DNA of 64,000 nucleotides from a virus. The notes beneath the pieces were generated by a model that worked only from the letters and a program-made list of their open reading frames with translations, was not told where the DNA came from and made no database searches. The stretch spans positions 6,342 to 70,341 of IMG/VR virus record IMGVR_UViG_3300025102_000019. One strand, 5' to 3'. Made by a program: the position numbers and the translations under genes. Shown here piece by piece: positions 36,045 through 58,791 of the stretch (positions are counted from its first letter, which is position 1; every line of letters begins with the position of its first letter).

Positions 36045-39000
36045 CTAAACTGTTGTTGCTTCTTTATCTGGACCTGAATCTTCGTTTTTGATACCCTTAT
36101 CCTTCTTTTGTTGTCGCTTCATATGTGGATATGGTTTTTCATCATCTTCTGTGGGTCTTGCCCTCATATCATAGTCAGGCAAGGTCTGCTCCCCATCTAG
36201 GGTTGTTGGTCCTCTAGGACTTTCTACACTACCACCTAGTTCTATTCCTAGTCCCTTTCCACCGCTCATTGGAAAATGTCCCTTCTCTAGAGCATCCAGA
36301 ACCCTAACCATAACACCGAGGGCTTTCTCCATCTGTGGTTTGAGCAGTTGGTTCTTTTCTGCTAAGGTCTTGGCCTTGTCCTGTACTTTCTTCTCAGGTA
36401 TGGGTCTTTTCTCGACCTTGCCTTTGAGTATCATGCTAGCAACCTGAGACCAATATGGTTTGAGACTGTCAGACAATCTGATTGAGTAGTCTGACTCACC
36501 GAACTCCGAGAGGAGTGTGCGTGGTGAGTGTACCCAATATCCCAAGTCTGATTTTTCCAATGTGTAGAATACGTCGTTGTCAATGCATGTCTTGACAATC
36601 AAGGTGTTGTCCTCTATATCCACATCATGCGGGAAGTGTAGATTTGGTACGGACTTGGCTAGTATGTTGAGTGTCTCCATGCTGACGCTGGACTCACCTT
36701 CTCCCTCACCCACTATCTTCACTGGATTCAAGTCGTATACTTCTCTCCCATTGATTTTCTTTCTTTTGATGCCAGTAACTTCCACCTCGACTATGTCACC
36801 CTCTTCAAATGATTTAGGACTAGATACCGTACCTACGTCTAGATATACTTCCCCTTCGTAGTCTACTGTGGCATTCTCTATACCCTCATCGTCAATCAGA
36901 GGTCCTGCACCTAACCTGTATGTGATGCTCTTCTTGCCTCTCTTGTCTAGAATCCTGAGGTTGACATTCTTGTTGGGTCTGAGTAGAACCCACTTCGGGT
37001 GTCTCTTCTCTCCCTTCATGTATGTGCTTTTACCGTCTCTGATGAGTAGGCAGTCATGTTCCTCAAGAAGTGACTTTACCGTGTCTTCCAGACCATCATC
37101 GTCAGTCATGCGTGTGTCGTGTGGTCCGGGCACAGTGACGTTGTCGTATCCATCGAACTGTCCCCTGAGTATCTTCAGTCTCTCTTGTATGGTCATATCT
37201 GTTATATCGGTATCATCGTAGTAGGTGATGTCGATGATGTGCAACTCGTCATCTGAGAGTATACCGTCTAATGTGCAGTCCTTCTTCCCTAGGTTGTTGA
37301 CACCATCCTTGACCCAATCAGGAATGCTCATTCTTGAGTTATGTTCGTTGTACGCTGATACCTTGTCGTTCAACTTCATGACCACGACCCTCTCTCCCTC
37401 ATACCACTTGGATACCACCCAAGAGCCAGTGAAACCCCTGAGTTGCTCCATGTCCTTGAAGTTGAATATCCTGTGCATGGGTCGTATTGGCGGTACGAAG
37501 TTCGGTGTGTCATCCCCTTTCAGCATCAGTGAGTCTGGGTTGAGAAGGAAGGCTGCGTAGTCAGATGGCTCGCTGGTCGTTATCGAGTAAGGCTGGGCTG
37601 CTGGTACAGTACCGTCTGGGTAGACCATGTACTGATTAGCACCCGTCATAGAGACGTTCTGGTCATCGAGGCTCTGGACTGCTGCTGCCACTTCTCCCCC
37701 GAAATGTTGTTGGATGACTGACATGGGTACTGCGTGCATCGGCTGAGGAGCGGCTGTCGGTCCTGACGTGAGTTTACCGAAGGTGGCATCGAATGACTCG
37801 GCTGGTTTCCTGAGTCTGTGGTTGCCGTGCTCCATGAGTCCTGAGTATCCGTAGAGGTCCATGACGGGTGTGCCTTGTACTCCTATAGGGTGCAAATCCC
37901 TTGCTCCGAATCCTATGGCCTCACTCTCAATCATAGCAGGTGACGATGATAGGTCGAAGTTGGGGTCATGCACGAAGAGGTCCTTGCTCGCATGTTGAAT
38001 GTAGTCTGCTCTTCTTCTCAAATCACCACCCTCTGCTTGACCACTTCGTCGTGCTTTGATTGGTTTATTGGAGAGCAGAGAGCGTCTTTCCCTACCCCTA
38101 CCTATCTCAGGGGCTGCGAAGTACGTCAGACCTAGATTGTCCTGAACCTCCTTGGGAAGGCTGTTGACCTGACCCCTGAGTCCCCTCATCTGGGACTCTA
38201 TGCGTTTTGTGTACCCAAGTAAACCATCTTGGGAAAAACCGTACTTCTCCTCAGACTCCTCGTTGGAGAGTCTCTTGTTGTCGGAGGTGCGGTCTCTAGT
38301 GGATGCGAATATCTTCCCTGCATGGTCATGCATGTGCTCTATGTCATCATAACCCAAGAACATCCTTTGGCCCTCTCCTATATACAACTCAGGGGGATTT
38401 GTCGTCATGGAATTGAGAGACATGATTACTCTGTGGTCATCCTCGTTGTTGGGGTCGAGTGACGCTTTTATCGAGTCCAGCACGTTTCCATAGTGCGCTG
38501 AGTGAGTACCATCCTCACCCATGCCTAGATGTTTTACTAGGTCGTCTAGGGTTGTTTTCGAGTCTACTCTGAATCCGTGCTCTCGCATGTGCTCTGGTAG
38601 TCTGTGGAGTCCAGTCCTCTGCAAGTCTGTTTGCTTTTTGTCTAAACCATGCTCCATCACCTTGAGGTTGTTTGTCCAAGTCTCACCGTTGGGTAGTTCT
38701 ATCTCCGCACCCCTCGGTAGATGCATCAAGACCATGTTGGCATCCCTGAACAGACCGTCAATCTCCGCATCCAAGTTGGGGTTGTCAGGGCTGAACGTGC
38801 CCTCTGGTTTGAGTTGCCTGAGAACTATCGCCATCCGTTCTATTGCTTGGTGATGGGATTGTACCCTGTCCATGCGCTCCCTTAATCTACTTTCAGCCTT
38901 TGGAGCATCAGAATAAACTGTTCTGGTTTGGCCTTGTAAGTGCTTTCCACGTAATTCTTTCTCTTTCGGTAGGTCAATATCCATATGCTGGAAAAACTCG

Positions 39001-41624
39001 TTAATGGCCTGCTCATCACCGCTCCTAGCACCGAAAGATGGAAGGTTCACTCCCAACACTTTTTTGTCCAGTCTCAGTCTACCACGAGGTCTTTCGTTTC
39101 CGGTTCTTCCCAACATGGTTGCTATGGCGTGTGCCCAGATATGTTGATGTGTAGAAACTTGGTCTGGGTCTATCTTCTCCTCGTATGTATCCTGCACGTT
39201 GTCTCCGGTCGATAACGCCTCACCCACTCCTATGGTTGATGCTAGGTTCGTAGCGCCTATGTCTGCCTCTTTCTTTTTTGACCTCTTGTACCCCTTGCCG
39301 TGCGGTATTCTTGAGTTGGTAGCACCGGAAGCGTAGTCGGGTTTGGTGATTTTGAAGAACTTGCCGTACTTCTCCTTCACATCATCTTCTGACATTCTGG
39401 ATATGGTGTTGACCAGACCGGGTGACAAGTGTGAAAGGTTTGCGAGAATCTGATTCTTCGGAGTCGTGCCGTCTCCTCCTACGACCATAGACTGTCCGTA
39501 CTTGGATAGTATATTTGCTGGGGTGTTGAAGACACCACGCTTGTGATTGAGGAAAGGTGCAATCATTCCTATGTTGAACTCATTGGGTGTTATGCGCTCA
39601 CCATCTACCATCCCTAGATGACTCTCACCCTCTGCGTTTGAGAAGTGCCTGAAAATCATCTCCATCAACGTGTGTGGGTTTCTACCAAGACCACCAGCAG
39701 CGAAGGCCGGAGCGAAGAAAGCACCTAGGCCGTAGTGACCTGTGCTATCGGGAATCCTCAAGTCCTGCATGACCTCGGCCATCTCCGGGTCAATCTCGGA
39801 CTCATCGAAGTACAGACCTCCATGTAGGAGCATGTCGTTGCGTATGTCCTTGGCATCCTTGCCTAGGTCTCCTTGAGACTTGGCTTTGGAGAGTACCGAC
39901 ATTAGTGTGTCCCTGTCGAGCAGAGGACCTGAGAAGTTGGGATAGTGATGGTTGTCATCCTCGCTCATCTCAGTCATGTCCTCGTTGTATCCCAATGCGT
40001 AGAGAATCTCCTTCTTGGATAGCCTAACATCTTCTTTATGGCCTGTGTTGATTATGTCATTCAGGGACTTGTCATAGTGAGCGGCTATCGCATCCTCCTC
40101 GGATGCACCCTCTTTCTTCTTCTGGTATCTCTTGATTGACCTCTCACTGTGCTTCGACAACTTGGGTAGGTGGTTGAACTCCTTGTGTGCCTTGCCGGTC
40201 TCCTTGTGGAAGTGACCATCCTTGTCAAGACCGTTCTCATCATTGGCTTTGACGAACTCCAGACCCAGAGCCTCTCTGAGGTTGTCGTGTATAGTGTCCC
40301 TGTGCTCGAAGTCGTCATCATGCACTATGTCGTGAAGTGCTGAGAAGAACTCGTCTTGTTGTTTGTTGGATAATTGCTCCTCGTTATTCTCCCTATGTGG
40401 TATGATATTCTCGTTAGTGAAGCCATGCTTCCTGCCACCCCAGTTTGACATTGAATTGAGTATGTGTTGTGTTGACCTCTTTATCCTCCCAGCAGATACC
40501 GTAGTGCCGTCTGGTAGTTTGATGTCTTGGTTTCCCACCTTGTCCAAACCATCCTGCATCTTGTTCATTATCGCTGTCCTCTCTCTGGGAGAGAACCACT
40601 GTAGTTGGTGTATGAAACCACCAAGACCCAGATTGTATCCATGGTCGATAGTCTCCGCTGGTGGCATTTTGCCTTCCTTGTCTGCTAGTGCGTAGTCGAA
40701 GGGCTGCTCCTTGACCTCAGTGTCCATGTGTTTGTGATTCCAACTCCTAGCCCTGTCGTCTGCGTGTAGTTTCCTAAGAGCCAGTTCCTCCTGCGAATGG
40801 AAGTGACCTTCTGGTATCTCGTCTGACAGCCCCTCTGCTCTGGCATCTGCGATAGAGCCTGTCCTCCAAGACCCGTCGTGGTCCACCTCACCAGTCTCAG
40901 GGTTGATGCTCTTCCACTCCTCGTCACCACTGAGCCAGCGCTGGTAGTCCCTCTCGTACACGTCTTGCATGGTCTTGAGTGATACGTCCTTCAGACCACC
41001 GAGAGGACCGAGACCGTGGAAGTTCCTCACTGTGTTGCCCTCTAGGTCCAACTTCTCCATACCCTTGTGGTGTGGACTGCCCTTCTTCCTGAGCATCCTG
41101 TCTTGTGCATGCTCCACAGCCGCTGATATCTTTCCGTGGGTCTTGTGGTTGGTGAGCGTGGGTAGCATCTGCCTGACCATCAACTCGTCTCTGATTGAAC
41201 GCCCTGAGGGTAGCATCCTCTTCGACGGGTCGTAGTGACTGCTGAAGGGATTGGACTTGGAATCACCGTAGGGTACTATACCCATATCTGCGACCTCAAG
41301 GTCGTGATGGTGCGAAGCCCCTCTCCTCTTGACCCTGCCTCTCCAAGGTTGAGTCTTGGAGAGATGTTGTTGGTTCTGCTCGGCTTGTATGGCTAGGAAT
41401 TGTTGTTTCGGTATGTATCCTTTACCATTGTAAGTCATTTTTCTGACGAAGGATTCGCATATGTTCTCCTTCCAAGTGATGTCATTGGTGAAGCCATCCT
41501 GCTCCATCACCGCTTTGGCGATGACGTATTCCTCTATACTTCCATCTACGTCTAGTCCGTCTAGAATACTGAGCAGGAGTTGTTCTCTTGCCTTCACGAA
41601 CGTGGATACTGAGTCTTCATACAC
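36045..41624 (-). CDS. 1859-aa head-module protein with C-terminal degenerate ATP-dependent DNA ligase (nucleotidyltransferase + OB) fold
   Basis: Ligase-like motifs in order: SKWYEGER, CTLDGIL, HIIDITYY, ERLKIL, DCLLIRDGKSTY, RHPKWVLLR, then OB-like GDIVEVEVTG. The long H/D/E-rich N-terminal region was not recognised. Confidence 0.7.
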   Translation of the reverse strand: MYEDSVSTFVKAREQLLLSILDGLDVDGSIEEYVIAKAVMEQDGFTNDITWKENICESFVRKMTYNGKGYIPKQQFLAIQAEQNQQHLSKTQPWRGRVKRRGASHHHDLEVADMGIVPYGDSKSNPFSSHYDPSKRMLPSGRSIRDELMVRQMLPTLTNHKTHGKISAAVEHAQDRMLRKKGSPHHKGMEKLDLEGNTVRNFHGLGPLGGLKDVSLKTMQDVYERDYQRWLSGDEEWKSINPETGEVDHDGSWRTGSIADARAEGLSDEIPEGHFHSQEELALRKLHADDRARSWNHKHMDTEVKEQPFDYALADKEGKMPPAETIDHGYNLGLGGFIHQLQWFSPRERTAIMNKMQDGLDKVGNQDIKLPDGTTVSAGRIKRSTQHILNSMSNWGGRKHGFTNENIIPHRENNEEQLSNKQQDEFFSALHDIVHDDDFEHRDTIHDNLREALGLEFVKANDENGLDKDGHFHKETGKAHKEFNHLPKLSKHSERSIKRYQKKKEGASEEDAIAAHYDKSLNDIINTGHKEDVRLSKKEILYALGYNEDMTEMSEDDNHHYPNFSGPLLDRDTLMSVLSKAKSQGDLGKDAKDIRNDMLLHGGLYFDESEIDPEMAEVMQDLRIPDSTGHYGLGAFFAPAFAAGGLGRNPHTLMEMIFRHFSNAEGESHLGMVDGERITPNEFNIGMIAPFLNHKRGVFNTPANILSKYGQSMVVGGDGTTPKNQILANLSHLSPGLVNTISRMSEDDVKEKYGKFFKITKPDYASGATNSRIPHGKGYKRSKKKEADIGATNLASTIGVGEALSTGDNVQDTYEEKIDPDQVSTHQHIWAHAIATMLGRTGNERPRGRLRLDKKVLGVNLPSFGARSGDEQAINEFFQHMDIDLPKEKELRGKHLQGQTRTVYSDAPKAESRLRERMDRVQSHHQAIERMAIVLRQLKPEGTFSPDNPNLDAEIDGLFRDANMVLMHLPRGAEIELPNGETWTNNLKVMEHGLDKKQTDLQRTGLHRLPEHMREHGFRVDSKTTLDDLVKHLGMGEDGTHSAHYGNVLDSIKASLDPNNEDDHRVIMSLNSMTTNPPELYIGEGQRMFLGYDDIEHMHDHAGKIFASTRDRTSDNKRLSNEESEEKYGFSQDGLLGYTKRIESQMRGLRGQVNSLPKEVQDNLGLTYFAAPEIGRGRERRSLLSNKPIKARRSGQAEGGDLRRRADYIQHASKDLFVHDPNFDLSSSPAMIESEAIGFGARDLHPIGVQGTPVMDLYGYSGLMEHGNHRLRKPAESFDATFGKLTSGPTAAPQPMHAVPMSVIQQHFGGEVAAAVQSLDDQNVSMTGANQYMVYPDGTVPAAQPYSITTSEPSDYAAFLLNPDSLMLKGDDTPNFVPPIRPMHRIFNFKDMEQLRGFTGSWVVSKWYEGERVVVMKLNDKVSAYNEHNSRMSIPDWVKDGVNNLGKKDCTLDGILSDDELHIIDITYYDDTDITDMTIQERLKILRGQFDGYDNVTVPGPHDTRMTDDDGLEDTVKSLLEEHDCLLIRDGKSTYMKGEKRHPKWVLLRPNKNVNLRILDKRGKKSITYRLGAGPLIDDEGIENATVDYEGEVYLDVGTVSSPKSFEEGDIVEVEVTGIKRKKINGREVYDLNPVKIVGEGEGESSVSMETLNILAKSVPNLHFPHDVDIEDNTLIVKTCIDNDVFYTLEKSDLGYWVHSPRTLLSEFGESDYSIRLSDSLKPYWSQVASMILKGKVEKRPIPEKKVQDKAKTLAEKNQLLKPQMEKALGVMVRVLDALEKGHFPMSGGKGLGIELGGSVESPRGPTTLDGEQTLPDYDMRARPTEDDEKPYPHMKRQQKKDKGIKNEDSGPDKEATTV

Positions 41625-48216: not shown

Positions 48217-50483
48217 TCTCCCCCCAGTGTGACCTTGACCACCTTGACTACTGATGGTTTGATTTTGTATGCCTTGGCAATCCTGTCCCAATCGCCCTTG
48301 CTGTTGGATATGGTTCTGACATCCTGCTTGGTGATACCGAGTTTCATGGCGAGGAATGACACGTCGTCCTCCTTGTTAGCACTAAGGTTCTCCTTGGGCA
48401 TCTGCTTGAGCACAGCCACGTCCCTTTTGGCCTCAAGCATCTGGACTCTTTCCATTGCTTTCACCAGTCTGTCTTCGATGGATAGTGTATCGAAACTGGT
48501 TGCCACTGGGAAGGAGTCAGTCAACTTTGTTTGATAAGGGCTTTGTGCCGCAGCAGCGGAAGCGACCCTTGCGAGCATATCTCTTCGCTTTTCTTGGTCA
48601 ACGTCTTCTACGGGGTTCATGATGTTAGGTGGTATTTTCCTACCGGTCATCTGCTCGAATTGTGGTATGAATTGTTGCGGGTTCTTAGCCTGTTCTCTGG
48701 CTATCATATCACGAAGCCTATTCATATCTACGCCCGGAGGCACATCAGATGGTGACCACGACGGTTTAGGTGGTGGTGCTTCTGGCTTTGCTTCTGGTTT
48801 CGCCATCGGGTCTGCGTCATCTGTCGATAGTGGTGAGTAGTATGCCTCCGTCATTGCGCTTGGCACGAAGTAGTTCTGCATGTGCTCAGGTAGTGGTCTG
48901 TTGACATCGAGGTGACCATCCAAGTACTTGGGGACTAGGCCGGGTGTGGCCTCTCCTGACACAGGTGCGAACTCACGCACCGTGCCACCGTGACCCAATG
49001 TGATGAGAGAGCCTAAGAGGGAGAACATGTCTTTCTGACCCTGAGAAGTCTCATGAGCAGGTTCTTCTTGGGAGAAGTTAGTGAGAGCGTCTAGACTTCC
49101 TATGACACCTGAGAGTGCGAGGAACTCGGCTGCTGGCATATGCACCGCCTTGCCCTTCTTCTCGTGAGTTCCTTGCTTGTTACCGGCAGTGACCCTCTCC
49201 ATTGCATTGTCGAACATCTGCTGCCCCTGCCCCTTCAAATCGGGATGTCCTATCAGGGTATCTTTGAGAGTATTCACCAACTTATTGACACGTGATGTCT
49301 TCTGAGCGGGGTTGCCGAGCATGAATTGAAGAGCATCAGGACTCATGGCCATCTGGTCTATCAAACTGTCAAGTTCAGGGAACTTCTTTCCGAATCTAGT
49401 CTCTTCGTATATCTCCCTGATTGTAGGCCCTTCAACAGGACCTGATGCGTCTTGTCTCGTGAATAGGGGAGCGTCTAGCATCTCGGTGTTATTCTCGTTG
49501 AGATTGGAGACAATCGCTGGTAGCAATTCCAACATGTATTTACGATAGTTTTCTTTCTTTATGTTAGTGCCACCCGGATTCTTTACTCCCTTTCCATATT
49601 CAGGAAGGGGGTTGAATATGTCAAGAGGCATGTGTTGAACCATCTCCCAGTTGTGAACATCGTCGTGCACCACATCACCTACGGATGAGTGGCCGAGCAT
49701 CTCCCTGAACTCAGGTGGTAGTGTCATGTCATCTGCTAGGTTCTCACCGACCACACCTCTGAGTCTCCTAGTGTTGGGGGATATGTGCCTGCCTGAGATG
49801 TAGCCATGCGTGATTCCCTCATCAAAGTTTGATTTGTAGTTGAAGTCCTCCTTGAGGATGTCGTGTAGATAAGGTGCAAATGGTATCCTGTACGACTCAG
49901 GGTGCTGTGCTAGACCCTGCTTGGAGTGCTTGAGACGGGCATCGCTACTCATGTTGAGGTTGATGAAAGTGCCACCCTTGCCACGAGCGGAGAACTGGTT
50001 CGCCTGCTCTGTGGTTTTTGGACTGGAGAAATCACCCTTGGTCAGCCTCCTCCATTCAGGTGACATGATGTCCTCAGGTAGACTCTGGTTCTTCGCATCC
50101 TGATGGTCGTCGTTGTAGTCGCCTATCGCATCGGTTATCATCTGTCTAGCGACATCACCGCTGCCGACTATCTTGGACACCTTCGCTATCAGTGCGTCGA
50201 TTCCGTGTCGGTGCTCGTTGCCGTGTATGTCGGTGTAGACATGCTCGCCATCAGCGCCCATGCCCCAATCTCCCTCTGCTGCCCTGTCGCCGTATCTGGC
50301 GTTCTTGGGTAGGTCGAACCCCATGTCATTGGTGGGGTTGAGGTCGTGGTACTGGTCTGGGTGGGTGTCTCCTAGAAACACCAACTCACCAGTCAGGGGG
50401 TCAACGGTGTACGTTCCCTCTCCCTTTCTGAGCATGCCACTTGCAAGTAAGGCATGTGTGACGGATTTGAAGAGCAGGCTCAT
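48213..50483 (-). CDS. 756-aa hypothetical protein (putative internal virion protein)
   Basis: Long coupled ORF containing LLFKS, MLRKG and LVKA sites, a PIP-box-like QTKLTDSF and a C-terminal helical HTH-like segment. Confidence 0.6.
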   Translation of the reverse strand: MSLLFKSVTHALLASGMLRKGEGTYTVDPLTGELVFLGDTHPDQYHDLNPTNDMGFDLPKNARYGDRAAEGDWGMGADGEHVYTDIHGNEHRHGIDALIAKVSKIVGSGDVARQMITDAIGDYNDDHQDAKNQSLPEDIMSPEWRRLTKGDFSSPKTTEQANQFSARGKGGTFINLNMSSDARLKHSKQGLAQHPESYRIPFAPYLHDILKEDFNYKSNFDEGITHGYISGRHISPNTRRLRGVVGENLADDMTLPPEFREMLGHSSVGDVVHDDVHNWEMVQHMPLDIFNPLPEYGKGVKNPGGTNIKKENYRKYMLELLPAIVSNLNENNTEMLDAPLFTRQDASGPVEGPTIREIYEETRFGKKFPELDSLIDQMAMSPDALQFMLGNPAQKTSRVNKLVNTLKDTLIGHPDLKGQGQQMFDNAMERVTAGNKQGTHEKKGKAVHMPAAEFLALSGVIGSLDALTNFSQEEPAHETSQGQKDMFSLLGSLITLGHGGTVREFAPVSGEATPGLVPKYLDGHLDVNRPLPEHMQNYFVPSAMTEAYYSPLSTDDADPMAKPEAKPEAPPPKPSWSPSDVPPGVDMNRLRDMIAREQAKNPQQFIPQFEQMTGRKIPPNIMNPVEDVDQEKRRDMLARVASAAAAQSPYQTKLTDSFPVATSFDTLSIEDRLVKAMERVQMLEAKRDVAVLKQMPKENLSANKEDDVSFLAMKLGITKQDVRTISNSKGDWDRIAKAYKIKPSVVKVVKVTLGGE

Positions 50484-51799
50484 GCTGTTCGACCTGCCCT
50501 GCTGGTGTAGATACCAACAGGGTCAGCACCATGCATCTCCTCTTCCTCTATGTTCTCTGTTGGTCCGTTGGGTTTGCTGGTCTGGTCTCTTGAGTTAGAG
50601 GGATGTTTTGGTAAGTTAGAGCCACCACCTGATGTGTCTTTGTCTCCCTTCCCTTTCTTTTTGTTATCCTTCTTGTCAAGTAGCCTTGCCACCTTTTGTG
50701 CGAGTATTCTGAGTTCCTGCTTGTCTCCCCACGTCATCTTGCGACTCTTGCCTATCATCGACATTGATTGGTTGGACATTCTAGGGGAGAAGGATTGTGT
50801 AGAGCCACCCATGTTGAGATGTGGCATACCACTGATTCTGGGTGGTACTATTGGAGGAGCACGATGTGGTTTGAGTCTTGGTCTTGGTACTTTCGGCTTC
50901 ATCTCGCTCGGTAGTTTGGATTGGATTGTGCCCGCACCTGTCTCACCAGCCTTGTACGACCTAGGATTCTTGGGATTGGGTGTTGATTCTGTGACTCTGA
51001 CGTTTCCTGTTCTCTTCCTACCACCTTGAGCACCCATGTAACTCCTGTATGCACCGGGGTCTTTGCTCATCGGTTGCTTGGTTGCGATGGCTCTGTGCTC
51101 CATCTCGACGGAGAGTGGCGCTTGCATCATTCCTCTTTTCTTGCCTCTCGTGACACCTCTTCTCTTGGCTTTGTAAGAACGCTCGGTAGCGTTGATACCA
51201 CCGCTCATCCCTCCCGGTCCTGTCTTGAACTGCCCTGTGCTGGGCTTGAACTTCTTTCTTCTCTCTCGCACCGCTTCCTTGTCGTCTGCTCTACCTGACT
51301 CACTAAGTGGTCTGAGCATAGCGGTATCCGCACTCTCACCGAATGACTTGAGCAATGAGGACCAAGCGTTCTCCATAGGCTCGCTTGTGAATACCGGGTG
51401 GCCGTATGCCGCTCCCGGTCCTTTTGCCTGATTTGCTAAACTGGTCATGAACCCACCATTGCCGGGCGGCCCAGTGAGTGCGTTGATTTCTCCCTCGTTC
51501 GTCAATCTACCTGATAGGCTTCTGGGGTCTTCTTCAGTATCGTCTCTCGTTTCTGATGGGTCGTCCTTGAATTGTTGGAGCATAGCAGGTGTGACCTTGA
51601 CATGCTTTCTATTCTTGAGTTTCTCCTCTTGCTTGTCCTGCTCCTTCTGCTTCTTCTCCTTCTCAGCATCTAGGTACTTAGGGTCACCGGGGTTGTAGCG
51701 ACTCTCGTATCCATCGTTGTACCTGAACATCGTGGATGATTCGCTTCTTGAGTTGTATAGTCTGGTATCGCTACCACGACCCATCATTCCCTCGGTCAT
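50480..51799 (-). CDS. basic low-complexity protein (putative internal/DNA-condensing)
   Basis: K/R/P/G-rich; carries EPMENAWSSLLKS. Confidence 0.6.
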   Translation of the reverse strand: MTEGMMGRGSDTRLYNSRSESSTMFRYNDGYESRYNPGDPKYLDAEKEKKQKEQDKQEEKLKNRKHVKVTPAMLQQFKDDPSETRDDTEEDPRSLSGRLTNEGEINALTGPPGNGGFMTSLANQAKGPGAAYGHPVFTSEPMENAWSSLLKSFGESADTAMLRPLSESGRADDKEAVRERRKKFKPSTGQFKTGPGGMSGGINATERSYKAKRRGVTRGKKRGMMQAPLSVEMEHRAIATKQPMSKDPGAYRSYMGAQGGRKRTGNVRVTESTPNPKNPRSYKAGETGAGTIQSKLPSEMKPKVPRPRLKPHRAPPIVPPRISGMPHLNMGGSTQSFSPRMSNQSMSMIGKSRKMTWGDKQELRILAQKVARLLDKKDNKKKGKGDKDTSGGGSNLPKHPSNSRDQTSKPNGPTENIEEEEMHGADPVGIYTSRAGRTA

Positions 51800-52224: not shown

Positions 52225-52902
52225 TCACTCGCCTTGCTGTTCTAATAACTGCTCTTTAATCCTCTTCCAACTATCGGGGCTTTCCTTTGCTAATTCGACT
52301 TTTAGTATGTTAAACGTCTGGTTAATTTGAGTACCATCACTGTCTGCCCCCCAACTGTCATTTAACTTCACTAGGTCTTTGATGCTCTCCCTTACCTCTT
52401 TGTGTAGTTTCACTGCATCACCGACGAAACCATCTTCATGCACACTACCGTAATCTAACAACTCATTGAACTTGTCGTTGAGTTTCTCGACATTGGTACG
52501 GAGAACATTGACTTCTTGACCTAGAGTGATAGCGACCTCGAATGCTGCTGCCTTCTTGACGAGAGGTTGGAAGTGGTGTTTCATGTGATGGTAGACCGAG
52601 TTCTCGGAGCAACCGATGACTTCTGCTATATCCTCACTAGGCAGTATACCCTCGAAGTATCCTGTCTCGAACTCCCCTCTCCTGTCATGTGTGCAAACCA
52701 CACAGGAATGGTTGGAATCCATGTGATACTCACCCATGTGATTCTTGAAGTGACGGTCTGCTGTATTGGCCCTCCAATTCATGTCCTTGTCTAGTTGCTT
52801 GCAACTGATTTCACCGTTCAAGAGCGACTGTTCTAGTTGCTCTCTATCATCAGATTGGCAAAAGGCGCAGGACCTCTTGACCACTCGCTCTCGCTCGGTC
52901 AC
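52225..52902 (-). CDS. tandem zinc-finger/HTH protein with C-terminal coiled coil, probable terminase small subunit
   Basis: Two repeats of CxxC...helix-turn-helix...HxxxH (CAFC..RHFKNH; CVVC..HHMKHH) followed by a coiled coil. Upstream of terL. Confidence 0.55.
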   Translation of the reverse strand: MTERERVVKRSCAFCQSDDREQLEQSLLNGEISCKQLDKDMNWRANTADRHFKNHMGEYHMDSNHSCVVCTHDRRGEFETGYFEGILPSEDIAEVIGCSENSVYHHMKHHFQPLVKKAAAFEVAITLGQEVNVLRTNVEKLNDKFNELLDYGSVHEDGFVGDAVKLHKEVRESIKDLVKLNDSWGADSDGTQINQTFNILKVELAKESPDSWKRIKEQLLEQQGE

Positions 52903-52950: not shown

Positions 52951-53217
52951 TTACATCCTACTTATTCTGGTGTATATCGTAGTCAACCCCATCATGGAGA
53001 CGAATATCGCAATCATAGCCATTGAAGCATCAGTTTGACTGATGTCAGAGGCCTTGAAGACCAGAACGAAAAGCATGACGAGTATTGCGCTGATGAGTTG
53101 AATCATCACCATGTCGATAATGACACTTCTCTTGTGGGAGAACATGTTTAACGACAAGTTGGCCACTTGGTTCGGCACTCCTAGAGGAAGCGAACCTCTG
53201 CTAGGTCCTGACATCAT
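52951..53217 (-). CDS. small two-TM membrane protein (holin-like topology)
   Basis: Two hydrophobic helices (VIIDMVMIQLISAILVMLFVLVF; AMIAIFVSMMGLTTIY) and a basic C-terminus. Confidence 0.6.
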   Translation of the reverse strand: MMSGPSRGSLPLGVPNQVANLSLNMFSHKRSVIIDMVMIQLISAILVMLFVLVFKASDISQTDASMAMIAIFVSMMGLTTIYTRISRM

Positions 53218-53855
53218 ACTCTACCCCCGAATAGTGCTCTGTTGATGAAGCCACCAGTGGCTTGTCCTACAGATTCCATCATACCGGGGTCTGCTAATGC
53301 TGTGTTCAACATACCCTGCATGAGAGATTGGTCAGCCATCTGTAGTATCTGCTGTCTCTCAGCCTCGGCCTTCTGTATTATCTGCATAGATGTATTCTGT
53401 AGACTGTTTAGTTGTGCTATAATATTCTCAGCACTTAGAGTTTGTAGGTCGCTCGGCATAGAAGTGACATCAAGTGAGAGACTGCCTGTCTCCTCATCCA
53501 TAGTAAAACTTGCATTCTTCAACACATTGAGAAGGGAGAAAGTGGTGATATTAGACAACATCTCGATGAATATAGGCATGTTCTGACTGATGATGAACTT
53601 GTCAATTGGTTGAATTGTGTTGAGCATCGAAGCCAGAATCTGAGTTTCCGAAGGTGGCGCTACTGGTGCGTTGTATTGTTGAGGAGATATACCTGCACCC
53701 CCTAGAATACCACCCATTAGAGGGGAAGTTCCGTATTGATTGGAAGCGTATCCGTTCTGCATGGGTTGTTGACCGAAAGCGTTTGATTGACCAGTGCCTA
53801 GACTAAGCGAGGTGGTGTTTTGAGTGCCCCCTAGATTTGAAAGTCCTAATGTCAT
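53214..53855 (-). CDS. hypothetical Q/S/G-rich helical protein
   Basis: 213 aa, coupled by ATGA overlaps within the GTPase operon. Confidence 0.6.
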   Translation of the reverse strand: MTLGLSNLGGTQNTTSLSLGTGQSNAFGQQPMQNGYASNQYGTSPLMGGILGGAGISPQQYNAPVAPPSETQILASMLNTIQPIDKFIISQNMPIFIEMLSNITTFSLLNVLKNASFTMDEETGSLSLDVTSMPSDLQTLSAENIIAQLNSLQNTSMQIIQKAEAERQQILQMADQSLMQGMLNTALADPGMMESVGQATGGFINRALFGGRV

Positions 53856-54886
53856 TGTATCACCTCTGCTGGATTTACTGCTGTTGCTATAGTGGGCACT
53901 ACCGGAGGTGGTGCTTGCATAGTCGCAGCGGGGTTCAGGGTTTGAGCCTGTTGGTTGAGAACTGTGTTGAACGCTTGTTGTGCTGCTAATTGTTGTTCAT
54001 GAGCCTCTCTTTGAAACATTCTCATGTCAAATTGCACCATAGTGATATCATTTGACCCTGTTTCTGGATTTGGTATGTGCCATACGTTGATTCCCTTCGT
54101 TCTCTGTGAGTCTTTCTCAATCTCTTGAAAGAAAGGCTCGTACTTCTGAACTAAGTCGGGCGCTCTAACCTCATTGGCTTGCAGTGATGACACTGGTATA
54201 GTAACTAGACTGACTCCTTTCTTCACCTTGTCCTTGAATCTGCTAGGTCTCATCTCATCTTCCTTGTCTTGAGCGGCTTCCCATTTGCAGAGCAGGTGAT
54301 AGAGGTGTAGATGTTCAGGGCAGTATGTTCCTTTGAGAGTCTTACCGCTGGTTACTCCACTTCTCGCTAAGAATGCTTCAGTTTGACCTGAAATAGGATT
54401 CTGCCAGTACATGTCCCAAAGACTTCTACCTGTATCTTCATCTGTGATTCGTGCGTAGAGGTTGTCGTATTCTATGAGTTGCTTGCAATCACAACCATCG
54501 ACAACACAAGTACCGCTGTCTTTGGTGTATCTGTATGGACTTCCCAACCACCTTCTTGGGTCTAAAACAGACCTCCTTGTTGGTTTGAGTAGTCTGTATG
54601 CCTGTTTGATATCTTTTCTTCTGGCTTTGCGAGGGTCAGCGTGATTGGAGGGGTAGAAGTTTACTTTTGGGACTTCGAGATTCTTCTGTCCTGCTATCTG
54701 CTGCATCTGTTGCTGTGCTATTGCTTGTTCCATAATCGCTGCTTGATTAAACTGAGGATTGCCCATTTGGGCCATGTTCAACATTGCTGCGTCATTCAAA
54801 TTGCTTAGACTCTGAGTTTGCATCGGAGTTCTTGTTATTGTGCGATACATATTATCGGGTACATCTAAGAGACCGCCTACCATCAT
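53852..54886 (-). CDS. hypothetical protein with Cys/His zinc-binding motif and Q-rich ends
   Basis: CVVDGC...YCPEH motif; 344 aa; coupled to its neighbours. Confidence 0.6.
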   Translation of the reverse strand: MMVGGLLDVPDNMYRTITRTPMQTQSLSNLNDAAMLNMAQMGNPQFNQAAIMEQAIAQQQMQQIAGQKNLEVPKVNFYPSNHADPRKARRKDIKQAYRLLKPTRRSVLDPRRWLGSPYRYTKDSGTCVVDGCDCKQLIEYDNLYARITDEDTGRSLWDMYWQNPISGQTEAFLARSGVTSGKTLKGTYCPEHLHLYHLLCKWEAAQDKEDEMRPSRFKDKVKKGVSLVTIPVSSLQANEVRAPDLVQKYEPFFQEIEKDSQRTKGINVWHIPNPETGSNDITMVQFDMRMFQREAHEQQLAAQQAFNTVLNQQAQTLNPAATMQAPPPVVPTIATAVNPAEVIQ

Positions 54887-55107
54887 TCAACCTCCGCTGG
54901 TGTCACATGAATAGACATTTGCCCGTTTTCTGCCGATAAACGCCATTCTACTTTACTTCCAGCAGTCATACCAAACTGCTGAACAATCCACATGGGTATA
55001 GTAGTTCTAAGTGAGTTACTACCCCCTCCTGTGGGGACGAGTGTTGTGGTAGTCTTACCCTTCGCCATGGAGGTCGCACACCCTACTACATCAAAAAGGT
55101 CACTCAA
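54883..55107 (-). CDS. AbrB/MazE/SpoVT-type DNA-binding protein
   Basis: GGGSNSLRTTIPMWIVQQFGMTAGSKVEW matches the swapped-hairpin AbrB pattern common in archaea. The true start may be the internal MAKGK. Confidence 0.7.
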   Translation of the reverse strand: MSDLFDVVGCATSMAKGKTTTTLVPTGGGSNSLRTTIPMWIVQQFGMTAGSKVEWRLSAENGQMSIHVTPAEVE

Positions 55108-55817
55108 GAGGTCAAGAGTTCTACTAAGGTTGGTTCAACATTCCAACCCACACGAGTAGCCATGAAAGCACGCTTTGTTGGTAACCTTGCTTTCTGCAAG
55201 CGAATTAGGTCATCTCTGAAGGGGTCGAATATCTTGTGCTCACCTATTCTGTTTTGCTGCCATAGTTCAGCAGCCTTCTTGTCGAAGAACCTGTCTGCCT
55301 TATTAGCCACTAACATGACCATTCTGGGCGTGTATTTCTTTCCCTTCAATCTGCTTCTAAGAGTTCTATATCTGTAATCTCTCTGGATAAGCCTATCTAC
55401 AAGATACTTGAAACCAGCAACTTGCTCTGCACCTTCAGGTCCACCAGCAAAGGCTCTGTCATCAAACACAAACATGACACATTCCACTTGTCTAGACACC
55501 ATATCGTCAATCCACAGATTCCAGAATCTCTCTTGACCACCTATGTCTGCTGAGTATACCACTCTCTTTTCGCCTTGCCAAGATATTCTTTTCCTAGTGG
55601 GTTTGGGTAGCATATACCTTGTTAGTAACTTGAAATGTTTGGTTCTCTCATCCTCGTGTATCTCTTCCATCTCACCGGGAGTGGTCATATAGCGGTCTAA
55701 TGTGGTCTTGCCAACCATGCTAGTGCCGTAGATACCGACTTTTCTTGGCTTCCATGAGTTGTAGAGGTGTTGTCCGTATATGGCTACACCAACGAGTACA
55801 CTCCCTCCACCTACCAT
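55104..55817 (-). CDS. Ras-superfamily (Arf/Arl-like) small GTPase
   Basis: G1 GTSMVGKTT, G3 DIGGQERFWNLW, VMFVFD strand, G4 VANKAD, G5-like MAT..GWNV. Hydrophobic N-terminal extension. Confidence 0.85.
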   Translation of the reverse strand: MVGGGSVLVGVAIYGQHLYNSWKPRKVGIYGTSMVGKTTLDRYMTTPGEMEEIHEDERTKHFKLLTRYMLPKPTRKRISWQGEKRVVYSADIGGQERFWNLWIDDMVSRQVECVMFVFDDRAFAGGPEGAEQVAGFKYLVDRLIQRDYRYRTLRSRLKGKKYTPRMVMLVANKADRFFDKKAAELWQQNRIGEHKIFDPFRDDLIRLQKARLPTKRAFMATRVGWNVEPTLVELLTS

Positions 55818-55826
55818 TTACTTCAC

Positions 55827-56087
55827 CTAGTTGGGCAATTTGGAGTAGAGCCAATCAGCAAAACTCTCAACCTGCTGATATGTCCACTCAACTGTCCAAC
55901 CCCAAAACGTGAAATCACTGTATGATTCCATTGCACTAACTGCTAGTGATGCTCCTAGTGCAGCAAGTATGGTTCTAAGCCAACCTACACCCCATTCGTA
56001 GGTGTTATCAACAGTGTTAGCAAGGTGCATTGCCCGTAGAGTTTCCTCTACAGAGTCGTCTTTTGGAGTCTTGAATATCCTGCCCAT
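55827..56087 (-). CDS. small membrane protein
   Basis: Hydrophobic WGVGWLRTILAALGASLAVSAM and a Trp-rich C-terminus. Confidence 0.6.
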   Translation of the reverse strand: MGRIFKTPKDDSVEETLRAMHLANTVDNTYEWGVGWLRTILAALGASLAVSAMESYSDFTFWGWTVEWTYQQVESFADWLYSKLPN

Positions 56088-56725
56088 CAGTTATCGCCAC
56101 TACCCTTCGTATATCTAAGGTCTGGCGTTCCGTCCTTCTTCAAACGGATATTATTCGATGATATGTCTCTAGGCGGAACTACTGATTCACGAACCATTTC
56201 ATCAGCCAGAGAATCTAAACCAAAACTTGTTGATTGGGTAACATTAGCGTTATGAGACGGAGGTTTTGATGTGTTAAATAGGTCAACTCCTAATCCTGAG
56301 ATACCGGATTGACTGTTAGACATCATAGAAGGGGGCATCTTACCGGGATTCTGCTGCATCCAAAGTAGTTCCTTCTCCAACTGCATCTCCTGCATGCGTA
56401 GTTCCATGTCTGAACGACGCTGGTCGTAGTTGAATTGCTGCTCTCTGAAGCGGTAATCCCTCTGCCTCTGCATCTCTGACATCCTAACTCGCTCTTGCAT
56501 CTGCTCCTCAAAGAACATCTTGAACAAGTAATATGCTAGAATCTGGACTGCTAAAGCCCCCATAGCATATGTCATTCCGTTGACATACTGATTTGCATTC
56601 TCTCCACCGGGCAACCACAATCCAGCATCGTAGATACCTATTGCGACTCCCACTAGAGCCGACTGGGTTAGTATCAACCCAGTCAATCTCATTTCTGATT
56701 TATCCGAAGGGTCTTGTCTACTCAT
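56087..56725 (-). CDS. two-TM membrane protein with coiled coil
   Basis: Two N-terminal TM helices, a Q/R/E coiled coil and C-terminal LKKDGTPDLRY. Confidence 0.65.
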   Translation of the reverse strand: MSRQDPSDKSEMRLTGLILTQSALVGVAIGIYDAGLWLPGGENANQYVNGMTYAMGALAVQILAYYLFKMFFEEQMQERVRMSEMQRQRDYRFREQQFNYDQRRSDMELRMQEMQLEKELLWMQQNPGKMPPSMMSNSQSGISGLGVDLFNTSKPPSHNANVTQSTSFGLDSLADEMVRESVVPPRDISSNNIRLKKDGTPDLRYTKGSGDN

Positions 56726-56778
56726 CTTAGTGACCTCTAGAAAGACCCCACGAGGGTGGCTATCATAAGCCTTCTGTA

Positions 56779-57651
56779 TTATTCATCCGTCTCGTTATCT
56801 GAATATTCGCCTAATTCAAATGGTCTAGTCTCATAATGTGTGGAAGCACGATAGTCCTTAACGGCGCTCGGTTGCACCATACCTAATAACGCTGACAGGG
56901 CAGCAGGTTGCCAATCTTGACTTACAGCGGGATGAAGAGTGTCTGATGCCGAGGTTTTGGATGGTATCTCACCGTGATATCTATTGTATATCACATTCTT
57001 TTTCTCAGGGTCTAAATGAGTCTTTGCTGCGTTGATTCTATGTGCTATTTCTTCAAAACTCTTTTCTATTGGTCTCAAAGTTCCTTTGTCTTTGAAATGC
57101 CTAGCCCTGTTCGCATGCTCCCCCTCCAACGTGAGACTCCCACCTTGTGTATGACTGACATCCTTACGGTTGTGAGACCCGTAGATGCCTCGTCGTCTTC
57201 TTTCCCTATTGAGTTCTTCACGGTATTTTACACGCTCAGGGCTAGACTCGTATTTTGTGTCATACTCTTTCTTATGACGCTGGGCTTCTGGTGAGAGTTC
57301 TCTCTTGAGTAGTTGAAAGATGTGGTCGAAGTCAATATCTTCACTCTTAACAATCGTCGGCTTCCCACCAATCCCCTGTTTCTTGGCTCTTTTGCGTTTT
57401 GTGGCTGACCTTTTTTGTCCACTTGACATCGAACCAGAAGTCTTTGGAGTTTTGCCTGAAACTTTCACCGATGGCCTGCACTTCGGGTATCCTTTTCCAG
57501 ACAATTTTGCTTTCCCCCTCCCGCATGGTGGGTGTTTCCCATCCTTGTCCTTTCTCGATACGTCTACCCACTTTTCCTTGAACCATCGGTTCAGGTTCTT
57601 TACCACTAACGTATTGTGGCAGGTGCAGCGGGAGTCTGAATCGGTACTCAT
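56779..57651 (-). CDS. multi-module basic protein (RWFKEKWVD..C..YPKCRP module + HNH-like module)
   Basis: Modules are separated by LVVK/N, IVK/S, LLK/R and IEK/S sites. The second module (YREELNRERRRRG...DVSH...NRARH) resembles small phage HNH-like proteins. Confidence 0.6.
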   Translation of the reverse strand: MSTDSDSRCTCHNTLVVKNLNRWFKEKWVDVSRKDKDGKHPPCGRGKAKLSGKGYPKCRPSVKVSGKTPKTSGSMSSGQKRSATKRKRAKKQGIGGKPTIVKSEDIDFDHIFQLLKRELSPEAQRHKKEYDTKYESSPERVKYREELNRERRRRGIYGSHNRKDVSHTQGGSLTLEGEHANRARHFKDKGTLRPIEKSFEEIAHRINAAKTHLDPEKKNVIYNRYHGEIPSKTSASDTLHPAVSQDWQPAALSALLGMVQPSAVKDYRASTHYETRPFELGEYSDNETDE

Positions 57652-57839: not shown

Positions 57840-58024
57840 ATCACAAACACCATTTTAGTGATTTTATCAGCGGCTTTTCTCTGAGCATACAGTAAACTGT
57901 AGCAGGGGCATCGAGGTGGTTTCATGGAGCACTTCATCACGCCCTTCTCCATGCATTTGCATGGATTCTTCTTATTTCCACCACAACAACAACTATCTCT
58001 TTTCAATGCCATTAACAATTCCAC
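57836..58024 (-). CDS. small Cys-rich protein
   Basis: CCCGG..C.C....C.....C.C; coupled to its neighbours. Confidence 0.5.
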   Translation of the reverse strand: MELLMALKRDSCCCGGNKKNPCKCMEKGVMKCSMKPPRCPCYSLLYAQRKAADKITKMVFVI

Positions 58025-58791
58025 CTTTTCAATGCTGCTCCTTTCGGGGTTAATTTACCATCCTTGCTCGTAGGGCCTTTACTTCCACCCATTCTAGCAC
58101 AGAAGGACTTTCTTCTCTTCGCCTTTTTACTACCCGGCTTGAGTTTGGATGGCTTGGTGGTGACTGGTGCTTTTAGATTAGCACCTGTTTCTCTTTTCGC
58201 TTTGGCTCGACCTTTCGCATTGAGACCGCCTTTCTTGTGGTGTCTGTTTGGGTTGTAGCCGTGAAACGGCTTGGATTTCTTCTTTGCCTTCTCAAAAAAG
58301 TCCTCAATCAGAGTGCCGAATGCCTGTGTAGTAGGAGAACAGCAGTCACAAAGCGCTTTGACTTGCACGTAAGCGTCTGATTTCATCGTCATGGGGGCTA
58401 GATTGGCCCTAGGAATGCTTCCACTCCTCACATTACTTTCAGTACCACTGAAAATACCGCCGCTAGGCTCTGGTTGCGAGACCGAATCGGTCAGCCCTCC
58501 ACCCCTTACGCCTACTACACCCACATTGCCCTGAGGCAGGCCGAACTTTTTGGCCCTTTCTAATGCGAACTGGTACGCTAGTTCTGGATTATCGGTTGTG
58601 TAGGACACCCTGTCCTCATTCCTGAGACTGGGTGGAACGTAGTGTTTCGAGCGTGTTTTCGGGTTTCCGCCTCTGATTCCTTGGTCGAGAACACCCTGCA
58701 TGTCGATTGTACCGTGATATTCACTGACCGGACCGAGGCTGCTGGGAAAATCAGGGTGGAACTCACCCAGTTCAGTCTGTCTGCTTACCAT
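58012..58791 (-). CDS. ADP-ribosyltransferase-like domain fused to a basic phage module
   Basis: YHGT...VLDQGI...SYTTDNPELAYQFA...VVGV...GSIP pattern of HYE/KptA-like ARTs. C-terminal GGLNAKGR...RRKSFCARM...KRWNC module. N-terminal QTELGEF. Confidence 0.55.
   Translation of the reverse strand: MVSRQTELGEFHPDFPSSLGPVSEYHGTIDMQGVLDQGIRGGNPKTRSKHYVPPSLRNEDRVSYTTDNPELAYQFALERAKKFGLPQGNVGVVGVRGGGLTDSVSQPEPSGGIFSGTESNVRSGSIPRANLAPMTMKSDAYVQVKALCDCCSPTTQAFGTLIEDFFEKAKKKSKPFHGYNPNRHHKKGGLNAKGRAKAKRETGANLKAPVTTKPSKLKPGSKKAKRRKSFCARMGGSKGPTSKDGKLTPKGAALKRWNC

Follow-up and report, generated by a model that had tools for sequence, protein, structure and literature searches.

The virus record IMGVR_UViG_3300025102_000019 of the IMG/VR database carries a real, conserved, and hitherto undescribed cassette of genes around a new family of Arf-like small GTPases. 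The cassette lies in a 64-kb stretch of this record (here called the window), which comprises 70.3 kb in total and is estimated to be 66% complete. It consists of seven open reading frames (ORFs) on the minus strand (g1 to g7; positions 52951-56725), with the GTPase gene in third place (g3; 55104-55817). The identities assigned to the cassette parts are very likely to be correct, and a late membrane-acting or egress role of the cassette is given a probability of about 0.35.

The seven genes are tightly coupled, as an earlier note on this DNA, made from its sequence alone, had pointed out. Five of the six junctions overlap: g1 and g2 share a single nucleotide (nt), and g3/g4, g4/g5, g5/g6, and g6/g7 overlap by 4 nt each; g2 and g3 are separated by a spacer of 9 nt. 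A 53-nt spacer on the upstream side and a 48-nt spacer on the downstream side set the entire block off from its surroundings. The block is located in the same transcriptional arm as the genes for terminase, portal, capsid, and tail proteins.

No description of the cassette was found in the searchable literature, where it may still figure as an unnamed entry in supplementary gene tables. The same is true for any link between a magrovirus and a GTPase and for virus-encoded Arf-like proteins in archaea, for which no paper was found. The terms “GTP” and “GTPase” do not occur in the main texts of PMC5434244, PMC11706807, PMC10160649, and PMC8651126, and the papers found on Poseidoniales, GTPases, and viruses all concern Asgard archaea, judging from titles and abstracts.

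Viral context and conservation of the cassette

From its gene content, the window belongs to a tailed, magrovirus-like virus of marine archaea, an assignment that rests on agreement with a published description. Genes encoding terminase, portal, prohead protease, an HK97-type capsid protein, and tail proteins are all present on the strand of the cassette. Among 50,697 phage records, the major capsid protein (MCP) has matches exclusively in archaeal tailed viruses (11 records), the best of which is the haloarchaeal siphovirus HVTV-1 (35.2% identity); the archaeal tailed virus implied by the earlier note is borne out. Related records have a size of 97-116 kb, and four of five encode a family B DNA polymerase (PolB). 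In one diverged group, a gene for a thermosome-like group II chaperonin (locus L082, 3250-4785) is located immediately upstream of the cassette. The magrovirus-like identity follows from the agreement of MCP, genome size, PolB, and thermosome with the available description of magroviruses, which have an HK97-type head close to that of haloarchaeal siphoviruses, genomes of ~100 kb, and archaeal replication genes (PMC5434244). The same source assigns magroviruses to Marine Group II archaea, a host that is itself deduced in the literature. Two exceptionally long ORFs also occur in the window, one of 5567 amino acids in the tail region (6963-23666, minus strand) and one of 1859 amino acids between portal and protease (36045-41624).

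A GTPase of the viral type is present in 3 of ~185,579 species genomes, with the copies located on contigs of 8-16 kb. These genomes are metagenome-assembled genomes (MAGs) named Promethearchaeati, Maricaulis, and Parvibaculum, which contain one to three short contigs with a magrovirus-type GTPase of ~70% identity (L099, L100-L108; G006-G008); the contigs in these three MAGs are almost certainly viral contigs that were mis-binned into cellular genomes.

Conservation is most evident among 80 close viral loci that were retrieved via the similarity of their GTPases. They share a constant gene order and strand, with g3, g5, g6, g7, and g8, the next gene downstream of the block, present in all 80 loci and g1, g2, and g4 in 79. 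The GTPase is the best-conserved gene of the block (68-100% identity). To control for ascertainment, 16 records were examined whose sole selection criteria were the similarity of the capsid protein (77-99%) and an upstream length, relative to the capsid gene, of 22 kb or more; each of them (16/16) encodes one GTPase.

Three more diverged groups were reached via distant representatives of the GTPase (32-41% identity); for a further representative (P0130), no viral contig was found. In the first two groups, a homolog of g5 directly follows the GTPase in all 17 loci, and tblastn recovered g6 in 13, g8 in 12, and g1 in 8 of them; g2, g4, and g7 had no tblastn match in any of the 17. The ORF maps of diverged loci show an ORF with two transmembrane segments and an ORF of 72-79 amino acids with one such segment ahead of the GTPase, and a Gly/Gln/Met-rich ORF of ~200-270 amino acids after g5; one locus (L088) also has an ORF of 81 amino acids with two transmembrane segments at the position of g7. 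In the third group (P0145 type), g5 is located directly downstream of the GTPase in 74 of 75 loci, a small hydrophobic ORF directly upstream in 70 of 76, and an ORF with two hydrophobic segments before that in 75 of 76. Here, the cassette is situated among small head-proximal genes, ahead of a protein of 478-1153 amino acids. The ORF maps lack g4 in all three diverged groups, and the GTPase abuts g5.

Judged from gene order, a core of five genes (encoding a protein with two transmembrane segments, a protein with one such segment, the GTPase, a Cys/His protein, and a protein of ~240 amino acids) is conserved by position in the three diverged groups, and the AbrB-like g4 and the membrane protein g7 are additions of the lineage represented by the window. 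Because profile comparisons between groups give no homology for the membrane proteins and a weak hint for g6 (hhalign against its positional analog in the P0145-type group: P = 0.0017, probability 15.7%), the GTPase and g5 form the demonstrable universal pair at the level of sequence similarity. The synteny of the seven genes, which the earlier note had proposed to compare, extends over 79-80 of the 80 close loci, but the diverged groups keep only the five-gene core; the conservation of neighbors with the GTPase itself holds even there, as documented by the adjacent g5.

Affiliation and membrane link of the GTPase

The sequence of the g3 product (237 amino acids) identifies it as a real and conserved, albeit divergent, small GTPase of the Ras superfamily (TRAFAC P-loop) that is predicted to bind GTP. 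The motifs quoted in the earlier note are all in place, with G1 (GTSMVGKTT) at residues 31-39, G3 (DIGGQERFWNLW) at residues 91-102, and G4 (NKAD) at residues 172-175. They are complemented by a G5-like FMATR (residues 218-222) and an insert of ~18 residues between switch I and strand 2. Among 143 distinct GTPase sequences from 177 loci, the P-loop GxxxxGK[ST] and the DxxG motif are invariant (143/143 each), NKxD is present in 142 (TKKD in the remaining one), and a Trp occupies position D+11 after the G3 Asp in 141. By contrast, residue 95 (window ~55533-55535), which follows DxxG and is normally the catalytic Gln, varies: 84 sequences have Gln, 46 have Glu, 8 have Asp, and 5 have His. This replacement of the catalytic Gln in ~41% of the family suggests that hydrolysis depends on a partner, and the variability of the residue may point to catalysis in trans or to a slow rate of hydrolysis.

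The AlphaFold2 model of the GTPase (predicted local distance difference test [pLDDT] 75.8; predicted template modelling score [pTM] 0.76) shows the fold of a small GTPase, extended by a helix at the N-terminus and by additional hairpins after switch I. A Foldseek search of the PDB with this model yielded 873 matches (E ≤ 0.001), of which the first 50 are all small GTPases or complexes that include one. Since the search returns the entire Ras superfamily, the fold is not diagnostic within it.

At the sequence level, the family stands alone: among 1.84 billion representative proteins, a profile search recovered only 83 at E ≤ 0.001, many of them fragments. Metagenomic homologs are more numerous (495 at E ≤ 0.001); the 120 that were listed are 71-86% identical, many stem from ocean surveys, and six carry the name “GTPase SAR1 family protein” from a single source. 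Searches with the single sequence returned nothing usable from the PDB (a septin-like chain at E = 0.38) and no match among the 50,697 phage records. The GTPase of the window has no PHROG, its NCBIfam matches are all below threshold, and in Pfam it matches Roc below the cut-off (E = 0.0012) and does not match Arf at E ≤ 1.

The affinity to Arf proteins becomes apparent when a profile of 17 diverse members is compared with solved structures. The best match is 8oun_A (PDB 8OUN; E = 2.1e-9), which spans the region from the N-terminal helix through switch II and represents GerdArfR1, described as an Asgard Arf-family GTPase (bioRxiv 10.1101/2024.02.28.582541). It is followed, after a P-loop artifact of RecA, by Arl8A (1.2e-5), Rab33B (5.6e-5), Arl5 (2.8e-4), KRas (8.5e-4), and Sar1 (2.6e-3). 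The scores of Rab33B and KRas fall in the same range as those of Arl proteins and Sar1. Among clusters defined by a protein language model, the nearest named ones outside the viral clusters are bacterial; Arf is their most common Pfam family and is present in 17-67% of the members.

The nearest cellular relative found is a protein of 216 amino acids that is encoded on the chromosome of an Asgard MAG (L107, ORF 1483-2133), one of those with a mis-binned viral contig, and matches the viral profile at E = 1e-13. Both this protein (38.4 bits) and a fringe member of the family (P0202; 36.2 bits) pass the Pfam cut-off for Arf (22.3 bits), and fringe relatives also pass SRPRB. The canonical Arf-like (1.6e-4) and Rab-like (1.5e-5) proteins of the same Asgard genome match the viral profile alike. 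The L107 protein represents a Heimdallarchaeial family for which different sources use different names (“ADP-ribosylation factor-like”, “Rab family GTPase”, and “50S ribosome-binding GTPase”). Like the viral family, this family has an insert that separates switch I from strand 2, as well as Trp residues in switch II. Unlike the viral GTPase, however, the L107 protein is chromosomally encoded, has DCPGD as its G3 motif, lacks an N-terminal hydrophobic helix, and has no neighbor resembling g5.

A phylogeny of the GTPases, another analysis proposed in the earlier note, was inferred by maximum likelihood (49 rows, 207 columns; unrooted, with long branches). Its references stem from one Asgard genome; it contains no eukaryotic, MglA, Roc-only, or ArvA rows, and seven weaker hits of the Arf hidden Markov model that had no locus were left out. 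In this tree, the viral family (12 rows; support 98/88) joins the Heimdallarchaeial family and two fringe proteins (100/99). Their common branch is separate from a group that contains seven Arf-family rows (88/62) and from a Rab/Ras-like group (98/97). At the three-way junction, the stem of the Arf/Rag-like group (0.16) is shorter than that of the Rab/Ras group (0.78).

The best match among solved structures, Asgard ArfR (GerdArfR1; 8OUN/8OUM), resembles the viral GTPase in having an unmyristoylated N-terminal helix before strand 1, which in the virus is a prediction, and a switch II of the type DxGGQ...W; its helix is described as necessary for membrane binding (bioRxiv 10.1101/2024.02.28.582541). 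It differs from the viral GTPase, which has the insert of ~18 residues after switch I, lacks a Trp before the G3 Asp, fails the Pfam cut-off for Arf, and is placed apart from the seven Asgard Arf-family proteins in the tree. Eukaryotic Arf, Arl8, Sar1, and SR-beta likewise share with the viral GTPase a switch II of the type DxGG[QH]......W. Their N-terminal membrane anchor is a helix in Arf and Sar1 and a transmembrane segment in SR-beta.

Taken together, these features are best read as those of a new, virus-centered family on the Arf/Sar/SR-beta side of the Ras superfamily, which would be Arf-like in its working features without being a member of Arf. The Arf-like GTPase of the earlier note therefore stands with regard to the best profile match and the nearest cellular kin, but not with regard to the Pfam cut-off, and the family forms its own clade.

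The N-terminus of the GTPase provides a putative link to the membrane. Its first ~20 residues form a conserved, mostly uncharged, Gly/Ala/Val/Leu-rich predicted helix, which is followed by an aromatic residue and a basic patch (Lys/Arg-Pro-Arg-Lys) just before strand 1. The hydrophobic moment averages 0.32 (moderately amphipathic) and the hydrophobicity 0.24 across 62 distinct N-termini, 26 of which have a charged residue within positions 4-20. Such an N-terminus is predicted to suit a membrane anchor that lies in the plane of the membrane or inserts only shallowly, comparable to those of Sar1, Arf, and ArvA. The helix (window 55760-55805) has a motif in common with the first transmembrane segment of g1 (56630-56665), S-[AV]-L-V-G-V-A-I, which in a looser form ([ST][AVG][LIVM][LIVM]G[AVG][AVSM]) is present on both sides of 29 of 63 distinct pairs. 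The common motif may reflect helix-helix packing or a coincidence between helices rich in small residues.

Partner proteins and flanking genes

The membrane proteins that the earlier note had recognized among the products of the cassette were recovered by Kyte-Doolittle analysis in windows of 19 residues. The first gene, g1 (56087-56725), encodes a protein of 212 amino acids with two transmembrane segments (residues 14-32 and 54-72), a charged helical stretch rich in Gln, Arg, Glu, and Met, and a low-complexity tail; it has no match in Pfam, PHROG, NCBIfam, or PADLOC. The product of g2 (55827-56087; 86 amino acids) has a single central hydrophobic segment (residues 34-52) and a Trp-rich C-terminus. 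At the other end of the block, g7 (52951-53217; 88 amino acids), which is outside the universal core, encodes two hydrophobic segments (residues 36-54 and 64-82) and a short basic C-terminus; its product is holin-like in shape only.

The gene inserted between the GTPase and g5 in the lineage of the window, g4 (54883-55107), starts with TTG and encodes 74 amino acids. The AbrB-type regulator that the earlier note had seen in it has some backing in a weak, AbrB/SpoVT-like match to Pfam MazE_antitoxin/AbrB (E = 6.3e-4), but its score of 20.1 bits is below the cut-off of 24.7 bits. A toxin-antitoxin system with a MazE-like g4 was considered and rejected, as the diverged cassettes lack g4 and no family of toxins is represented.

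The invariable neighbor of the GTPase, g5 (53852-54886), encodes an orphan protein of 344 amino acids that is found directly downstream of the GTPase in nearly all relatives. It contains five Cys and six His residues, in agreement with its earlier description as a Cys/His protein. The invariance of C127, C189, and P190 and the near-invariance of H192, H194, and H197 in the alignment suggest that the conserved Cys/His set is a putative metal site. Its structural model (pLDDT 73.3) has a confident core (80-94) over approximately residues 80-220. The model has no match among PDB folds at E ≤ 0.001, and the sequence has no match in the PDB, no usable hit in the ESM Atlas, and no Pfam family at E ≤ 0.1; an unnamed viral model in BFVD (A0A516LDA5) was recovered at E = 1.4e-4 with a TM-score (template modelling score) of 0.25. 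Co-folding of the GTPase with residues 70-320 of g5, run without controls, gave a score of 0.00 in both runs, which counts neither for nor against an interaction.

The product of g6 (53214-53855; 213 amino acids) is also an orphan, with a low-complexity N-terminal third rich in Gly, Gln, Asn, and Ser and a conserved C-terminal part. Its Gln content of 10.3% agrees with the Q-rich protein of the earlier note, its Pfam matches are weak and spurious, and the sole structure match is an OmpH-like chain at E = 0.055. Low-complexity regions rich in Gln, Asn, and Gly occur in g1, g5, and g6. Beyond the GTPase and g4, Pfam and PHROG yielded nothing credible for the five other cassette proteins, and no homolog of a guanine nucleotide exchange factor or GTPase-activating protein was found among the neighbors of the GTPase.

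Past the spacer of 48 nt follows the conserved neighbor g8 (52225-52902, minus strand), whose product (225 amino acids) combines Cys and His residues with a helix-turn-helix. It has weak matches to Pfam HTH_20 (5.6e-5, below the cut-off) and to phrog_867, “DNA binding domain” (0.0031), and, like g5, no match among the phage records. It probably constitutes a separate unit with a DNA-binding function.

Upstream of g1, on the same strand, lies an element (56731-56768) that consists of a TATA-like TTATGAT box and an inverted-repeat-like pair ending in GGTCA. Elements of this type match once in the window (0.01 expected). In 69 distinct related regions, a TTAWRNT box is present upstream of g1 in 59 and a TGACC..GGTCA repeat in 21; the repeat occurs in 12 of 2020 random pieces of 160 nt. 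A conserved box and an inverted repeat ahead of g1 fit a transcription unit that starts there, and the element is a probable promoter/operator or 5' leader of the cassette. It may also be the operator for g4 or g8, or form an RNA hairpin. Four runs of marine RNA sequencing from two studies yielded 3-9 contigs each (151-444 nt, 90-99% alike) that are scattered over g1-g8 and may derive from DNA. One low-depth contig of 151 nt from an RNA-labelled run joins sites in g5 and g4 on opposite strands (window 54645-54881) and is probably an assembly artifact.

Further upstream, two genes (56779-57651 and 58012-58791) encode basic proteins with matches to the domains of unknown function DUF5872 (E = 1.6e-9) and DUF6321 (E = 2.2e-15). 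The product of g10 (50480-51799) carries the sequence ...AWSSLLK and is the only one of 12 proteins scanned with an [AIFVL][WF]xxLLK motif.

Possible functions of the cassette

The Arf-type features of the GTPase, its membrane neighbors, the tight coupling of the genes, and their position in the structural arm together suggest a membrane-tethered GTP switch. In one of its nucleotide states, the N-terminal helix and basic patch of the GTPase would engage the cytoplasmic membrane beside g1 and g2, and its invariable neighbor g5 would act as its regulator or effector. Late in infection, the proteins of the cassette would together remodel or breach the membrane of the host and, most likely, time or execute the release of virions. 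That the Arf-type switch, the two membrane proteins, and g5 and g6 constitute a GTP-timed rupture or scission machine that opens the membrane for virion release is a more specific proposal and is unlikely. A comparison with the holin-endolysin cassettes of phages is instructive in this context. They also combine small membrane proteins in a late region, and g7 has the size and the two-segment shape of a class II holin, which is a small protein with two transmembrane segments. In contrast to such cassettes, no endolysin is recognized here, the transmembrane sequences are highly conserved, and the genes include a GTPase together with two large orphans that are soluble.

A role in egress has to be weighed against a number of observations that speak against it. 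Late expression of the cassette is read from gene position alone. No lysin family was detected by Pfam among 29 ORFs of the window, a scan that did not include the giant ORFs and several small ones; the earlier note had likewise recognized no endolysin. The holin-like g7 is not part of the core, and the transmembrane segments of g1 are near-invariant across 74 sequences of the close group, whereas conservation tends to be poor among holins. In the P0145-type group, hhalign detected no homology between g1 and g2 and their positional analogs (P = 0.16 and 0.1). Concerning the GTPase, Rac, Rab, and Ras rank first among its Foldseek matches (TM-scores near 0.45-0.5; range on the query 0.34-0.51). 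Across 31 viral members, Pfam matches Roc in 30 (best E = 0.0012) and Arf in 8 (best E = 0.13), all below the cut-offs. The hydrophobic N-terminal helix of the earlier note is predicted at residues 5-20, but with low confidence (pLDDT 46-55), and no Kyte-Doolittle window of the GTPase exceeds the threshold (maximum 1.08), which is too weak for a transmembrane segment. Finally, in the haloarchaeal viruses HVTV-1 and HCTV-5, which have the same head module, neither the GTPase profile nor the g5 profile found a match at E ≤ 1 (0/2 each), although both profiles recovered every expected copy elsewhere. The cassette is therefore not a general exit device of archaeal tailed viruses, and its function, whatever it is, would be tuned to a marine host.

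A tentative alternative is a nonlytic remodeling of membranes, in which the GTPase, like ArvA, Arf, or Sar1, buds vesicles or builds a membrane-bound site for replication or assembly. In this case, g1 and g2 would mark the membrane patches to which the GTPase recruits g5 and g6, and the GTPase alone would not kill the cell. The Arf-type affinity of the GTPase would fit such a role, the low-complexity regions of g1, g5, and g6 could scaffold assemblies, and a precedent exists in the ArvA system of Haloferax volcanii. According to its description, the small GTPase ArvA carries an amphipathic helix at its N-terminus, acts on the cytoplasmic membrane, and drives the formation of vesicles with two operon partners, one of them a Zn-ribbon protein; its closest Pfam profile is Arf, and its direct annotation is another family (PMC10927574). 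As described, ArvA resembles the viral GTPase in its N-terminal helix, which in the virus is predicted and hydrophobic, and the Cys/His protein g5 likewise follows the GTPase. ArvA is cellular, however, and its partners ArvB (DUF2073) and ArvC (DUF2072) do not match g4-g6; the neighbors of the viral GTPase contain neither these nor other Pfam domains, and the ArvA operon, as described, has no flanking small membrane proteins. Moreover, tailed viruses do not need an envelope. The speculation that host ArvA might be exploited, as set out in the review PMC10791045, concerns enveloped viruses.

The restriction of the cassette to the marine lineage and its absence from haloarchaeal relatives, as expected for a host-specific accessory function, and the presence of small virus-encoded membrane proteins would also be compatible with superinfection exclusion or a takeover of the host envelope, in which the GTPase would switch g1, g2, and g7 so that they keep competing viruses from entering or change receptors or transport. 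This is very unlikely, given that the cassette behaves as core in all 16 MCP-chosen records, that its core also persists in three diverged groups, that it is located in the structural arm and not among early genes, and that no defense model of PADLOC matches any of the eight proteins scanned. It is less likely still that the genes have no joint function and that the GTPase acts away from the membrane, on the ribosome or in packaging or replication, with neighbors that are merely co-transcribed late genes. The generic, sub-threshold Pfam matches of the GTPase and the lack of known families among its neighbors could be read in this way. Yet the gene order around the GTPase and the overlapping stop and start codons are maintained in groups with as little as 32-41% identity between their GTPases, and a cytosolic role does not explain the conserved hydrophobic N-terminus. 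Least probable of all, the proteins of the cassette could be packaged in the virion or associated with its tail, forming or gating a channel through the host membrane at DNA entry. They are encoded inside or beside the morphogenetic genes, head-proximal in the P0145-type group and among basic, low-complexity proteins in the window, but none of g1-g7 contains the proposed cargo tag [AIFVL][WF]xxLLK or matches a structural family of PHROG, and a GTP switch would have no fuel outside the cell.

Irrespective of its function, the cassette is core to its virus lineage, and its products belong to no family in the libraries. In the surface ocean, Marine Group II archaea and the viruses that infect them rank among the most abundant. 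The players in the egress of archaeal tailed viruses are called “completely uncharacterized” in a review (PMC10791045), and an Arf-type GTP switch with dedicated membrane proteins represents a concrete, clonable candidate. If the rupture machine outlined above were real, it would provide the first known egress system of an archaeal tailed virus and also the first case in which a small GTPase operates a lysis device.

An Asgard genome has been reported to encode Arf-type GTPases within an integrated region of mobile-like character (PMC11529989). The viral family extends the range over which Arf-like GTPases are known to the viruses of Euryarchaeota-type hosts, which bears on the spread of membrane-trafficking switches before and around eukaryogenesis. 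If the rupture machine holds true, Arf-type membrane switches would circulate in viruses of non-Asgard archaea, with their nearest cellular kin in Heimdallarchaeia.

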